Source: a virus (taxonomy: Duplodnaviria > Heunggongvirae > Uroviricota > Caudoviricetes). From it: a stretch of 4,443 nt of DNA. Location of the stretch: IMG/VR virus record IMGVR_UViG_2690316148_000014; one strand, 5' to 3'. The notes beneath the pieces are model-generated. The model ran no database searches, was not told where the DNA came from, and saw nothing but the letters and a program-made list of their open reading frames with translations. Shown one piece after another: positions 1 to 4,443 of this stretch. The position numbers and the translations under genes were made by a program. Position 1 is the stretch's first letter; every line of letters begins with the position of its first letter.

Positions 1-12
1 AGTGTAGCGGTA

Positions 13-1221
13 TTAAGCGCAGCTATTTAGTGAATTAAGTAAATTAGTCAGTGACCTTGTAAAGTCTGTTAAACCTTCCTGTGAACCATCGAACATTAAG
101 GCCAGATTATTATTCCATGAATTACTTAAGCGGCCTAACTGCGTCTGAGTAGAGTTAATAATCTTTTCCCATCCACCAGCTTTATCAATCATCCTTCCCA
201 TTTCAGCGGATACTTTAGGAAGAACATCTTTAGAAAGAACCTTACCGTCTTTCATGGCCTTGTCTAATTCTTCCGTAGTCATCCCAAGACTTCTGGCAAA
301 TAACTGAAAAGCACCTGCCATTCTGTCACCTAATTGACCGCGTAGCTCTTCAGCCTGAATCTTTCCTTTAGATGCCATCTGCTCGAAAGCTTTTAAAATC
401 CCGTTAATTTCATCGGTGCTTAGCCCCATTAATCTGGATGTACCAATCACATTAGAAAATAAGGATTCTTTCTGGTCTGCATTCATATCACCAGCACCAG
501 CGGAAAACTTAGCAAAACTGCTTAATGTTTCAATCTGGTCTACACCACTACTATCAGCAAGATTCTTAACAAATTCTGTAGCTCGTTTAGCACCTTCATC
601 ACCTAAAACGAATTGTGCCGCTCGTTGTGATGCTTCTTTTTTCAGACCAACCTCCATAATCCGCCTGTAAGCTTCTAAGGCTGTCTGAAAACTATAAATG
701 GCTGTACCTGCTTTGATTGCACTCGTAGCTAATACATCCAGACTATTTGAAGCATTTTCACTGTGATTATTTTTGCTGGTGGTCTTGTTAAACTTAGAAA
801 GTGTTTCACGAAGAGACTGATTTAACTTTGCTAACTCACGATTAAAAGTTTCGTTTCCAAGTGTCTTGGATTTACTGCTTAAGCTGTAATACTGGCTTTT
901 AAAATACTTCTCAAGCATAGGATTAAAGTCACGAAGCTTGCTCATATTCGCTGAGTAAGCTGCTGTGATTGCTCTGCTTCCGCTAATTCGTGGCTGTCTT
1001 GGTTGTCTAAGTGGCTTTAAAGTATCCTCAATTTCAGTTTTAATCTTAAACGCTCTAGTGTTTTTAAGACGCTGCTCAATCTTGGAAACAGTTTTATCGA
1101 CATTTCTTTCCATTAGTTTGAGAGAATCATTTAAAGGCGTAGGATTAACTCTAAACGACTTATTCAATCGCTTCTCAATTCGTGATGCTACCTGCATCGT
1201 TTGTTTCTCGGCTTTTTCCAA
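13..1221 (-). CDS. Tape-measure-domain protein (phage tail length tape measure-like); 402-aa ORF as given, true 5' end probably at 1315 across the N16 gap
   Basis: Long minus-strand ORF with stop TAA at 15..13. The track start at 1221 is a TTG; the same frame stays open upstream to the gap. The C-terminal third (ASKGKIQAEELRGQLGDRMAGAFQLFARSLGMTTEELDKAMKDGKVLSKDVLPKV...KAGGWEK) matches, from memory, the conserved tape-measure domain of lambda gpH-type tail proteins. The N-terminal two thirds are low-complexity and K/S/N-rich. Not verified by HMM search. Confidence 0.7.
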   Translation of the reverse strand: MEKAEKQTMQVASRIEKRLNKSFRVNPTPLNDSLKLMERNVDKTVSKIEQRLKNTRAFKIKTEIEDTLKPLRQPRQPRISGSRAITAAYSANMSKLRDFNPMLEKYFKSQYYSLSSKSKTLGNETFNRELAKLNQSLRETLSKFNKTTSKNNHSENASNSLDVLATSAIKAGTAIYSFQTALEAYRRIMEVGLKKEASQRAAQFVLGDEGAKRATEFVKNLADSSGVDQIETLSSFAKFSAGAGDMNADQKESLFSNVIGTSRLMGLSTDEINGILKAFEQMASKGKIQAEELRGQLGDRMAGAFQLFARSLGMTTEELDKAMKDGKVLSKDVLPKVSAEMGRMIDKAGGWEKIINSTQTQLGRLSNSWNNNLALMFDGSQEGLTDFTRSLTNLLNSLNSCA

Positions 1222-1244
1222 GCCTTTTAAAACTTTCTGAGAGT

Positions 1245-1260
1245 NNNNNNNNNNNNNNNN
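1245..1260. other. Run of 16 N (assembly gap or mask) flanked by a duplicated 9-mer
   Basis: Ns are directly visible. The flanks read ttaaaactt-tctgagagt-[N16]-tctgagagt-taaaactta, which is typical of an unmerged contig overlap. Confidence 0.9.
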
Positions 1261-1315
1261 TCTGAGAGTTAAAACTTAACTCAATCAGAAAATCATCAAC
1301 TTTAAATTGTGCCAT
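1261..1315 (-). CDS. Probable 5' end of the tape-measure-domain gene, separated from the main ORF by the N16 gap
   Basis: ATG at 1315..1313 preceded by AGAGGTG 10 nt upstream. It encodes MAQFKVDDFLIELSFNSQ up to the gap. The 9-mer tctgagagt at 1261-1269 is repeated at 1236-1244 on the other side of the Ns; collapsing one copy and the Ns gives an uninterrupted frame ...SFNSQKVLKGLEKAEKQ... into the 13..1221 ORF. Confidence 0.45.
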
Positions 1316-1339
1316 TCATATTTTTCACCTCTTTAAGCG

Positions 1340-1594
1340 NNNNNNNNNNNNNNNNNNNNNNNNNNNNNNNNNNNNNNNNNNNNNNNNNNNNNNNNNNNNN
1401 NNNNNNNNNNNNNNNNNNNNNNNNNNNNNNNNNNNNNNNNNNNNNNNNNNNNNNNNNNNNNNNNNNNNNNNNNNNNNNNNNNNNNNNNNNNNNNNNNNNN
1501 NNNNNNNNNNNNNNNNNNNNNNNNNNNNNNNNNNNNNNNNNNNNNNNNNNNNNNNNNNNNNNNNNNNNNNNNNNNNNNNNNNNNNNNNNNNNNN
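1340..1594. other. Run of 255 N (gap or masked sequence); content unknown
   Basis: Directly visible; the flanks show no duplicated sequence. Confidence 0.95.
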
Positions 1595-1617
1595 GGTGAT
1601 AACTTGACGTTTGTTTT

Positions 1618-1865
1618 NNNNNNNNNNNNNNNNNNNNNNNNNNNNNNNNNNNNNNNNNNNNNNNNNNNNNNNNNNNNNNNNNNNNNNNNNNNNNNNNNNN
1701 NNNNNNNNNNNNNNNNNNNNNNNNNNNNNNNNNNNNNNNNNNNNNNNNNNNNNNNNNNNNNNNNNNNNNNNNNNNNNNNNNNNNNNNNNNNNNNNNNNNN
1801 NNNNNNNNNNNNNNNNNNNNNNNNNNNNNNNNNNNNNNNNNNNNNNNNNNNNNNNNNNNNNNNNN
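1618..1865. other. Run of 248 N (gap or masked sequence); content unknown
   Basis: Directly visible. It is separated from the previous N run by a 23-nt island, ggtgataacttgacgtttgtttt. Confidence 0.95.
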
Positions 1866-2478
1866 CTTTCATAGTATCAAGTTCTTTTTTAAGCTTTTGC
1901 TTTAACTTATCCAGTTTACCGGAATAATGCTTAGTCAAATTAGCTTCAGCTAACTGAAGAATCTCTTCATCTGTTTTATCAGTCATCAGAATAAATTGAC
2001 CAGAACCCCTTAATGCTTGTCTGACATCAATTAACCGGAACCCTTCAGGGATACTTTGAAGAACTTTAGGAACGTCTTCAATCGCTGTACCAAAACCATC
2101 ATTAAAGTTTCCTTCATAATAGATAAACGGGTTTGACTTAATCTCGTAAGCAATATCATATTCTGAAGGTTTCGAGGTTTCTTCGAAGTTCTTAACAGCA
2201 TCGTAAGCGACATCAAGTCTAAGACGCTGTGATTTTAAAGCTGGGTAATATTCACGCTCAAGCTCAAATAGTGCTTCAGTTTTGCAGATATCAGGCATTT
2301 CTTGAGGCTCAGGAGACACAAAGGAAATTACCTTTGGTGACATCTTTAGCTCTTGCTCAAGCTCAATGCGCTTGTCATGCTCTTGACGCTGAATAGTATG
2401 TAGCGGATGTTCACCCTGTGGTGACCAGTCTCCGAAGCTATCAACCTTTTTACCGTTAATATATAAATCGTTTGTCAT
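1866..2478 (-). CDS. Hypothetical acidic protein, 5' end intact, 3' end lost in the N run (204 codons visible)
   Basis: ATG at 2478..2476 with GAGGAAA Shine-Dalgarno 5-8 nt upstream. The frame is open for 204 codons until it hits the Ns at 1865. The protein is charged and acidic (MTNDLYINGKKVDSFGDWSPQGEHPLH...LDKLKQKLKKELDTMK). The 381-aa track ORF spans two N runs, so its length and whether it is one gene or two cannot be known. No family recognised. Confidence 0.65.
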
Positions 2479-2502
2479 TATAATTTCCTCTAAGTGTGGT
2501 TA

Positions 2503-2580
2503 TTTCTTAATAGAGCACCTTCAACGCCAATACACTTAGAAGATGACTTAACGATTTATTAAAGATGCTCTATTAAGAAA
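2503..2580. repeat. Perfect 15-bp inverted repeat (tttcttaatagagca / tgctctattaagaaa) with a 48-bp spacer
   Basis: Arms at 2503-2517 and 2566-2580 are exact reverse complements. A 15-bp perfect inverted repeat is unlikely by chance in a window this size. It lies 25-100 nt upstream of the ATG at 2478. Confidence 0.8.
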
Positions 2581-2609
2581 AGCCCTAAACATAATCTGTG
2601 AAGGGCTTT
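2573..2609 (-). terminator. Intrinsic-terminator-like hairpin with U-tract (second of a tandem pair)
   Basis: On the minus strand: AAAGCCCT, a 15-nt loop, AGGGCTTT (8-bp stem, 2609..2579), then TCTTAAT. The loop is long for a canonical terminator and the U-tract is interrupted. Confidence 0.4.
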
Positions 2610-2671
2610 GGAGGTTTGCTTATAACGTTAACGAAGTTTCAGGAAAACTTTCTTTAAAAGCTCTGTTTAAA

Positions 2672-2706
2672 AACTCTTAAAGAAAGCCCTAACTCATGAT
2701 TAGGGC
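2672..2706 (-). terminator. Rho-independent terminator (first of a tandem pair)
   Basis: On the minus strand: GCCCTAA, loop TCATGAG, TTAGGGC (7-bp stem, 2706..2686), followed by TTTCTTTAAGAGTTTTT. No U-run follows the hairpin on the plus strand, so it is strand-specific. Confidence 0.55.
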
Positions 2707-2875
2707 AAAGCTGTAAAGGATTCAATAATGAATGAACAAAGACTTTTTGAGATAGCCTCTCAGACCAACCTGAAAGGCTAGGACGAAAAGCATTGCACCT
2801 TTCCAACTCAGAATATCCATCCATCGGATTATTGAAAGAAAAAATAAGAGAGAATTGCTCTCCCCCATATATACA

Positions 2876-2904
2876 ATTATGTCATGCTCAAGGTTGTTTG
2901 TCAA
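2876..2904 (-). promoter_or_regulatory. Sigma70-type promoter: -35 TTGACA, 17-bp spacer, extended -10 TGaCATAAT
   Basis: Minus-strand reading: TTGACA at 2904..2899, spacer aacaaccttgagcatga (17 nt), CATAAT at 2881..2876 preceded by TG. An A/T-rich stretch lies upstream. Predicted transcription start near 2869, reading toward the terminators and the gene at 2478. Confidence 0.55.
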
Positions 2905-2928
2905 CAGCTTTTAACAGATTGGTAACAT

Positions 2929-2994
2929 TTATACTTTAATAGATGCACCTGCAATCATACCAATCAATACAAAACAGATAATCACCAATTCCAT
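2929..2994 (-). CDS. 21-aa hydrophobic peptide MELVIICFVLIGMIAGASIKV, translationally coupled to the upstream gene
   Basis: The ATG at 2994..2992 overlaps the upstream TAA as TAATG. AAGGTGGTG lies 6-7 nt upstream of the ATG. The peptide is a single predicted membrane-spanning segment. It is below the ORF-track length cut-off. Confidence 0.4.
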   Translation of the reverse strand: MELVIICFVLIGMIAGASIKV

Positions 2995-3317
2995 TAATGC
3001 ACCACCTTCGAATCCGTCACCAGAATATTATCGCTATACAAAATTGCTATAGCCGCCTTGAGATATTTTTCAGGGCTAACGCTGTATTTGTTCGTTTCTT
3101 CGATAATAAGACGCTTCATGTTTGAGTCGGTAACAGGAAACATAAAACGCGGTTCACCAGTTTCAATTTCCTGAATAAAGTCTTCAATTTCTTCTGAGTT
3201 TTCAGCCATTAGCTTTAGTAATTTATCAAGGTCAATTGATACACCGGAATCAGCGAAAGCCTGCACCATCATAGCAGTGTCGCTATCAATGAAAATCTGT
3301 AATTCATATTCGTTCAT
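2994..3317 (-). CDS. Hypothetical strongly acidic 107-aa protein
   Basis: ATG at 3317..3315 with AAGGAG 9 nt upstream; the track's longer TTG start at 3350 is less likely. Stop TAA at 2996..2994. By my count 21 Asp+Glu against 9 Lys+Arg, and no Cys. No family recognised. Confidence 0.75.
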   Translation of the reverse strand: MNEYELQIFIDSDTAMMVQAFADSGVSIDLDKLLKLMAENSEEIEDFIQEIETGEPRFMFPVTDSNMKRLIIEETNKYSVSPEKYLKAAIAILYSDNILVTDSKVVH

Positions 3318-3495
3318 TTTTAAAATCTCCTTTTTACCAGACCTCCTCAATCGCTCTGTAACGAGCTAAACAGTCTTTTTCAGGGGTAGCCTGTACAGTG
3401 GTATTACCCACCCTAAAATAAGATAGTTTTTTGCGTTAGAATGCGATTGAGAGCGTCTGATAAGCTGTTTTTCTAATTTCTCTTAAAGTCTCGGA

Positions 3496-3696
3496 CTACC
3501 AATAACCTAATTCCGCTTTATTTCGTTCAAACCATTCCGCTGTAACTGCTGTCTTTAGTGTTGCGTTTGGGCTGGTGGCATGAATGAAGATATCTTTTGG
3601 ATTGCAAGCATCACCGAAACCACCTTCTTTGATGAGCAGGTCTGATACATGCTTAATCATTTTATCTGTCAAATATTCGAATTTAATACATAACAT
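3496..3696 (-). CDS. Hypothetical 66-aa protein
   Basis: ATG at 3696..3694 overlaps the upstream stop as TAATG and has GGAGA 5 nt upstream. The track's 77-aa version starts at a TTG inside the upstream gene and has no Shine-Dalgarno. Stop TAG at 3498..3496. Confidence 0.6.
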   Translation of the reverse strand: MLCIKFEYLTDKMIKHVSDLLIKEGGFGDACNPKDIFIHATSPNATLKTAVTAEWFERNKAELGYW

Positions 3697-3968
3697 TAAA
3701 TCTCCAGGAGTAAATTGTTTGGGTGGCAATTTCTTTTATTACCATCCCTGAAGATAATCTTTTTAGTTGCCTGAACTTCATGATGCAAAAACCAGATGAC
3801 ATACTTCAGATAATAATCACGAGTGCCATAACGAATCATTGGATTACCGTAAGCATCATCTCTTGTCTTAACCTCTCCACCATCAATCCATTCAAGCATT
3901 CCTGTCTCATAATTAATCATGAAGTAAGTTGCAAAGAACCGTTTAATATCATCTCGCCATTGCTTCAT
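3696..3968 (-). CDS. 90-aa protein with a degenerate HNH-like motif (possible HNH_3-type His-Me finger remnant)
   Basis: ATG at 3968..3966 with GGAGG 7 nt upstream. The C-terminal IIFRDGNKRNCHPNNLLLEI resembles, from memory, the HNH_3 core (vdHiDGNKxNNrxxNLrw), but F-R replaces the first His and the protein ends right after the motif. The upstream region (EWIDGGEV...YGNPMIRYG) is NUMOD-like. Confidence 0.7.
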   Translation of the reverse strand: MKQWRDDIKRFFATYFMINYETGMLEWIDGGEVKTRDDAYGNPMIRYGTRDYYLKYVIWFLHHEVQATKKIIFRDGNKRNCHPNNLLLEI

Positions 3969-3970
3969 AA

Positions 3971-4249
3971 TCAGACCTCCTGAGACAGTTTGTGAATTTT
4001 GATACTTAGTAACCTTGCTAAATCCAGTCCAAAAGCATTTAAGGATTTCAGACTATCAAGGTCATCTTGCTTAATCCTGATATGGTGTCTTGCAGCCTCT
4101 AAGCGACTATTAAGCAAATCCTGTTCGTTAATATCACGGTTAATTGCAAGCTTCATCACTGCTGAGTGTGGCAGACCTGTAATGTTTTTGATTCGGTTCA
4201 GTTCATCAAAGGCTGTCTTTGTAACTCTGGTTAATGTGTGTTTATTCAT
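3971..4249 (-). CDS. 92-aa putative ribbon-helix-helix (CopG/Arc-like) DNA-binding protein
   Basis: ATG at 4249..4247 with AGAGGA 7 nt upstream, directly after the upstream stop (TAAATG). The N-terminal RVTKTAFDELNRIKNITGLPHSAVMKLAI follows the beta-strand/helix/G-L-x-x-S-A/helix pattern of ribbon-helix-helix regulators (compare CopG ...MGLSKSAMISVAL, from memory). The C-terminal half is helical and charged. Confidence 0.7.
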   Translation of the reverse strand: MNKHTLTRVTKTAFDELNRIKNITGLPHSAVMKLAINRDINEQDLLNSRLEAARHHIRIKQDDLDSLKSLNAFGLDLARLLSIKIHKLSQEV

Positions 4250-4443
4250 TTAAAAATCCTCTGTAACTAAATAGGGGTCAAACTCGAAATCTGGTTGCTC
4301 GTTTTCCATTGGCTCAATATTCCCAACGGCAATATGATGTTCAACAATGCCAATTAATTTCGCGCACATCACAGCAAGCAAAGCGCAATATTTATCGCTT
4401 GGTAATTCGTAACTGGATTTGCCCCTATATTTCCAGACATCTG
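4250..4443 (-). CDS. 3' end of a hypothetical protein (5' end beyond the window)
   Basis: The minus-strand frame is open from the window edge to TAA at 4252..4250 (64 codons: ...DVWKYRGKSSYELPSDKYCALLAVMCAKLIGIVEHHIAVGNIEPMENEQPDFEFDPYLVTEDF). Its stop abuts the ATG of the ribbon-helix-helix gene. It is not in the ORF track, probably because it is edge-truncated. Confidence 0.5.
   Translation of the reverse strand, partial: DVWKYRGKSSYELPSDKYCALLAVMCAKLIGIVEHHIAVGNIEPMENEQPDFEFDPYLVTEDF

Follow-up and report, generated by a model that had tools for sequence, protein, structure and literature searches.

The tail tape measure gene on the minus strand of the 4,443-nt stretch of DNA that we analyzed (IMG/VR record IMGVR_UViG_2690316148_000014; here called the window) is almost certainly a Shigella sonnei copy, truncated by IS630, of a gene that belongs to an island of ~11.5 kb, and the run of 16 Ns close to its 5' end is a spurious gap. 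The window itself would be a short and poorly scaffolded S. sonnei contig that is bounded by IS630 on the left and by IS2 on the right. Its tape measure ORF would correspond to the first 421 codons of a 688- to 689-codon tail tape measure gene from an E. coli/Shigella island, into which IS630 presumably transposed at a CTAG located at codon 421/422. Translation would then enter IS630 for four codons (N-S-C-A) and stop, with the loss of the C-terminal 268 residues. We infer that the remaining fragment is a non-functional pseudogene in a decaying, IS-riddled element.

The first-pass annotation of this DNA had recognized a tape measure domain at about residues 280 to 370 of a short protein, and all the elements that it described were found at the positions given. 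In the ORF list, the gene appears as a 402-aa ORF on the minus strand (13..1221), with a TAA stop at 15..13. Together, the ORF list, two domain profiles and 99% identity to a 689-aa homologue (P0002) define a truncated gene body at 13..1244 (minus strand), of which 28..1244 are tape measure codons, up to Leu421. Profile searches with PF20155 (TMP_3) matched residues 206 to 373 of the 402-aa ORF, equivalent to residues 229 to 396 of the merged 425-aa protein described below, with a score of 75.9 bits (E = 4.5e-21; curated cut-off, 41 bits). TIGR02675 matched residues 264 to 332 (287 to 355 in the merged numbering) with 61 bits (E = 1e-16; curated cut-off, 21.35 bits). Both matches are above the curated cut-offs, and the position proposed for the domain agrees with the TIGR02675 core.

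How does this short gene compare with its relatives? The search retrieved more than 5000 homologues among 5.8 billion proteins. Nearly all of the E. coli homologues listed carry the name tape measure protein and have 684 to 690 aa; they are 95 to 99% identical to the query, with the identity limited to query residues 1 to 421. The gene encodes 688 to 689 aa in hundreds of E. coli genomes, and the 99% identity between the window protein and P0002 likewise covers residues 1 to 421. All non-Shigella alleles run on for 268 residues past this point. The window ORF thus represents the front 61% of a 689-residue gene product, as expected from a truncated gene, which was one of the options that the first-pass annotation had considered. 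In the intact protein, PF20155 occupies residues 229 to 396 of 688 to 689, from the second quarter to the middle, and it is only the loss of the last 39% of the protein that makes the domain seem C-terminal in the window. The missing part holds the only strongly hydrophobic segments of the protein, as the Kyte-Doolittle profile of P0002 peaks only at residues ~475 to 520 and ~545 to 565, both past the truncation point; the window ORF is left without the hydrophobic segments expected in the distal half of tape measure proteins. Over its full length (residues 1 to 689), P0002 aligns to residues 1 to 741 of a solved tape measure protein, gp017 (PDB 9ndy chain F; E = 4e-74), whereas the window ORF, which breaks off at residue 421, is not collinear with the full length of this structure.

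Homology ends at residue 421 because positions 1 to 27 of the window are the terminus of an IS630 element. This right terminus (1..27, plus strand) comprises the last transposase codons, with the stop codon at 5..7, and the terminal inverted repeat. Window positions 1 to 30 are identical at 30 of 30 positions to IS630 copies on Shigella plasmids and E. coli chromosomes, where the features under the matches are annotated 'IS630 family transposase' and the matches fall at the 3' end of the transposase CDS. The partner of the terminal inverted repeat lies 1153 bp away in these copies, and IS630 is a 1153-bp element. IS630 inserts into CTAG and duplicates the TA. In the window, TAG at 28..30 is kept beside the IS630 end as a remnant of this target; the TA at 28..29 is one copy of the target-site duplication, and the minus-strand triplet at 30..28 (CTA) is the codon for Leu421. 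In E. coli 873.10 (L006), whose allele is uninterrupted, the sequence is ...CACCTAGTGAATT and CTAG falls precisely on the junction; the DNA homology to E. coli tape measure genes begins at window position 28/29. Past Leu421, the minus strand continues with the IS630-derived codons AAT AGC TGC GCT (27..16), encoding N S C A, and then with the TAA stop at 15..13. Hence, the IS630 site is the CTAG at codon 421/422 of a 688- to 689-aa E. coli gene. Directly after the tape measure stop, the sister S. sonnei contig L029 has an IS630-type transposase ORF of 289 aa with DDE_3 and HTH_32 domains. The first-pass annotation had mentioned neither IS630 as the cause of the short gene nor the IS2 at the far end of the window.

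The suggestion that the gene continues elsewhere was borne out in part. A search with the missing C-terminal 268 residues led to a partial S. sonnei protein (P0133) on a separate contig (L009), whose first 106 nt match the end of IS600 with 100% identity and are followed by tape measure residues ~556 to 689, the C-terminal 134 residues. Codons 422 to 555 may lie between IS630 and IS600 or may have been deleted. The next gene on this contig, which encodes a tube initiator, is interrupted in turn by the end of an IS2 copy (L009 position 1073). A further IS2 end is present at the other end of the window (4414..4443, plus strand), inside an island gene for a 185-aa protein. Window positions 4408 to 4443 are a 100% match to sequences under 'IS3-like element IS2 family transposase' features, and this match is multicopy in 4501 of 5426 E. 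coli genomes. The homology to the S. sonnei contigs L026 to L030 stops at position 4414, and since the 185-aa gene is intact in these five assemblies, the IS2 insertion in the window is strain- or sublineage-specific. The element has therefore received at least four IS hits: IS630 and IS600 in the tape measure gene, IS2 in the tube initiator gene and IS2 in the 185-aa gene. An exact IS630 terminus in a CTAG target, contigs that break at IS copies and several ISs within one element are all features of the IS-mediated pseudogenization that accompanied the expansions of IS630, IS600 and IS2 in Shigella. Nothing is unusual in comparison, and the window gene is a textbook instance.

The 5' end of the tape measure gene lies beyond the 16 Ns (1245..1260). 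The true 5' end is at 1261..1315 (minus strand), with the ATG at 1315..1313, and comprises codons 1 to 18 plus one base; reading of the sequence reveals a Shine-Dalgarno-like AGAGGTG (1326..1332, minus strand) 10 nt upstream of the ATG. The 9-mer tctgagagt is found on both sides of the gap, at 1236..1244 and at 1261..1269, and the probability that two adjacent 9-mers match exactly by chance is ~4e-6. When the 16 Ns are counted as bases, the ATG and the main ORF are in different frames. When the Ns and one copy of the 9-mer are removed, the ATG is in frame and the merged protein begins with MAQFKVDDFLIELSFNSQKVLKGLEKAEK..., which is identical across the joint to the N-terminus of the full-length homologues; MAQFKVDDFLIELSFNSQ is the N-terminus common to all of them. 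Three contigs from independent S. sonnei assemblies (L026, L028 and L029) match the window at 100% identity over positions 1 to 1244 and 1261 to 1339 and at 99.9 to 100% identity over 1866 to 4414. In a blastn comparison with these contigs the flanks of the 16 Ns overlap by 9 nt, and the same overlap occurs in L002 (99.8% identical) and L001 and was also seen in E. coli GB089. The 16-N run and one 9-mer copy thus hold no real sequence; they are a 9-nt overlap that the scaffolder left unmerged, and the gene is continuous from the ATG at 1315. This is what the first-pass annotation had proposed for both the gap and the in-frame, Shine-Dalgarno-preceded start, and the exact merged protein has been deposited in the public databases.

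All three N runs in the window are scaffold gaps. The 255 Ns at 1340..1594 stand for 240 real bases (blastn against L026 and L002), which contain part of a 69-aa gene and its surroundings, and the 248 Ns at 1618..1865 stand for 199 real bases with the 3' end of a 236-aa gene, according to identical S. sonnei contigs. The runs are off by 15 and 49 nt, respectively, and therefore the numbers of Ns are estimates of the scaffolder and not masked bases; a one-to-one masking of bases was considered and rejected, as the gap lengths disagree with those in identical contigs. A 381-aa ORF listed at 1333..2478 was likewise discarded as an artifact of the Ns, the real genes in this region being the 236-aa and 69-aa genes that are called in L026. 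Between the two long runs there are 23 nt of real sequence (1595 to 1617), which fit their expected position in the 69-aa gene of the identical contigs. Such a piece points to a consensus made from low coverage or with the guidance of a reference, and less to ordinary scaffolding.

Could the 16 Ns nevertheless conceal real bases, such as a tandem duplication of 25 bp, that shift the frame of the gene in this particular strain? A 25-bp duplication would be expected to leave the same repeated 9-mer, and a gap of 16 bases would indeed put the ATG at 1315 out of frame with the main ORF. However, five independent S. sonnei contigs that are 99.8 to 100% identical to the window are continuous at this position, and the other N runs, being off by 15 and 49 nt, show that numbers of Ns in this scaffold are estimates and not bases, which makes hidden sequence extremely improbable. 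The idea that the 425-aa protein is a genuine, naturally short tape measure-like protein with a C-terminal domain has practically no chance of being correct. It could appeal to an intact start codon, ribosome-binding site and stop codon and to the deposition of the protein from many S. sonnei assemblies, but the last four codons and the stop are IS630 sequence, all non-Shigella alleles encode 268 more residues and the remaining C-terminal piece is found elsewhere in S. sonnei. The IS630 terminus at window positions 1 to 27 thus rules out the naturally short protein that the first-pass annotation had entertained.

The merged 425-aa protein, which ends with ...LNSLNSCA, is encoded on at least 24 S. 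sonnei contigs and has already been deposited for S. sonnei (P0185; 'tape measure domain/protein [Shigella sonnei]'); the protein cluster of the truncated S. sonnei fragment contains 667 sequences. The 425-aa ORF retains its start codon, ribosome-binding site and upstream promoter region, and because of this the expression of the truncated protein could persist. Does the cell then keep the N-terminal fragment for a function, such as a dominant-negative interference with the tail assembly of Ounavirinae-type phages? The retained expression signals and the fixation of the fragment in many S. sonnei isolates, as reflected by the 667-sequence cluster, would be consistent with such a role. However, fixation is expected anyway in a clonal lineage, and the element has suffered at least three further IS hits (IS600, IS2 and IS2), a pattern of neutral decay. 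We consider a retained function to be very unlikely and favor the reading of the fragment as an IS630-truncated remnant.

The closest described relatives of the intact protein are the tape measure proteins of the Ounavirinae (FelixO1-like myophages), with the protein of PDB 9ndy chain F as a solved example and gp120 of Hafnia phage Zyzzx as a genomic one; with the proteins of this group it shares the PF20155/TIGR02675 domain and 32 to 44% identity. The downstream neighbor is shared as well: in intact islands, the tape measure gene is followed by a tube initiator homologue, a 257-aa protein that is 47% identical to Zyzzx gp121, while in the window it is followed by IS630. There are clear differences from these phages. 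The window copy covers only the first 421 of 689 residues, and the gene resides in a chromosomal island of ~11.5 kb with a serine recombinase and not in a virulent phage of 86 kb. Moreover, the island has no recognizable tape measure chaperone genes upstream of the tape measure gene, the 236-aa and 69-aa genes at this position being without similarity to phage chaperones. A megablast search of 50,697 phage records with the tape measure gene gave no match, which places the gene outside any sequenced phage, and the tape measure protein of a variant island (L018) is at most 37% identical to phage proteins, giving no sign of recent exchange with sequenced phages.

The intact gene is part of a conserved island of ~11.5 kb in E. 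coli that is bounded by a gene for a 507-aa large serine recombinase (L005, 6735 to 17975; L006, 7641 to 19260; L007, 7699 to ~19400), and window positions 28 to 4413 are the S. sonnei remnant of its middle part. The island opens with one or more variable genes and ~2.6 kb of ORF-poor, conserved DNA with a 95-bp tandem repeat, followed by genes for proteins of 185, 92, 59 to 66, 90 to 95 (HNH) and 102 to 107 aa; after these come a conserved intergenic element, the 236-aa gene, a gene for 69 to 71 aa, the tape measure gene, the gene for the 257-aa Dit-like protein and finally the 507-aa recombinase. The Dit-like protein matches the tube initiator protein gp018 (PDB 9ndy chain A, 'Tube initiator protein (gp018)'; E = 9e-108), besides being related to the product of the gene after the tape measure gene in Zyzzx. 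At least three chromosomal sites harbor the island: it lies in yecE in E. coli H2, E. coli 873.10 and S. sonnei (L026), between tonB and yciI in strain 47-1826, and next to dinB, where the large recombinase is absent, in GB089. In island copies derived from IMG/VR, the recombinase is 91 to 97% identical, while the identity falls to 42 to 48% for the tape measure protein and to 22 to 24% for the 236-aa protein; the tape measure, tube initiator and 236-aa genes are far more diverged between island copies than the recombinase gene. The IMG/VR hits were considered as evidence for packaging and rejected, because the provirus calls fuse part of the island with an unrelated tyrosine-integrase prophage at yecE. 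One such record (L013, 7058 to 14082) has boundaries that are not those of a single element, and a tyrosine-integrase prophage lies there beside a split yecE.

Scans of the island proteins against Pfam, PHROGs, NCBIfam and PADLOC returned profile matches for only the serine recombinase, the tape measure protein, the Dit-like/tube initiator protein, an HNH endonuclease and a Dam methylase, and detected no capsid, terminase, sheath or tube gene. The only recognizable virion genes of the island are those for the tape measure protein and the tube initiator, both of which are related to the Ounavirinae. The island resembles the large-serine-recombinase satellites of virulent myophages, such as PLE of Vibrio cholerae, in that the intact form has ~11.5 kb and a terminal large serine recombinase. 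Like PLE and other satellite classes, it consists mostly of small genes of no assigned function, has an ORF-poor conserved stretch that carries repeats, and contains a few genes homologous to virion proteins of virulent myophages. It differs from P4-like elements, PICIs, cfPICIs and PLEs in that the scans detected no hallmark gene of any described class (the P4 alpha primase, Psu, Sid and delta; the PICI AlpA, primase and Rpp or TerS; and the cfPICI capsid module). Among described satellites, none is known to carry a tape measure protein and a tube initiator alone, and we found no description in the literature of a satellite or island of this kind. We hypothesize, with considerable doubt, that the intact parent is a satellite or an anti-phage island of an undescribed kind, which would exploit or sabotage tail assembly in Ounavirinae-like myophages.

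Several other features of the island deserve mention. In each of the 16 island copies that we compared, the intergenic element of ~250 nt (window positions 2680 to 2935, minus strand) is 77 to 92% conserved, including copies whose adjoining 236-aa gene product has just 22% identity. A sigma-70 promoter (TTGACA-17-CATAAT with TG; 2904..2876) is invariant in the element and is immediately followed by a hairpin with compensatory changes, then by a second hairpin that is itself invariant (GAAAGGTGCAATGCTTTTC) and finally by a terminator (2706..2686). Indels whose lengths cannot be divided by three speak against a coding function, and the element is a candidate for a leader RNA or small RNA of ~190 nt (2869 to 2680); a search of the window and L006 against Rfam at gathering thresholds gave no match in the island. 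The ORF-poor stretch of 2.6 kb, which lies outside the window (L006, 15727 to 18332) and in which no ORF exceeds 91 aa, is 83 to 88% conserved between copies and has a 95-bp unit repeated 1.8 times at L006 16334 to 16505. It could be an origin of replication or a packaging region, or it could carry genes for non-coding RNAs.

The 236-aa gene (1866 to 2478, minus strand, continuing into the N run) bears the PGAP name 'transposase', as does its product in thousands of E. coli and Shigella records. Its product had no match in Pfam, PHROGs, NCBIfam, PADLOC or the PDB sequences, and an AlphaFold2 model built with 15 close homologues was poor apart from a long C-terminal helix (mean pLDDT, 61; pTM, 0.38). 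The name looks unsupported. A 90-aa ORF at 3696 to 3968 (minus strand), which shares 34 nt with the next ORF (3496 to 3729), is annotated as an HNH endonuclease in E. coli islands; its match to HNH_3 is weak (E = 7.5e-5) and narrowly misses the Pfam cut-off.

In summary, the finding itself is ordinary: the protein can already be found in public databases, and the decay of Shigella genes through ISs is well known. The 'short tape measure protein' annotations of S. sonnei describe an IS630-generated pseudogene, the N runs in this scaffold are artifacts, and no biological meaning should be read into either. More broadly, the truncated copy is of value as a pointer to its parent island, which is the more interesting of the two. 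If functional, the island would be a small mobile element that retains only the two core tail-tube proteins of a myophage and diversifies them, and it would illustrate a new way in which mobile elements interact with virulent phages.
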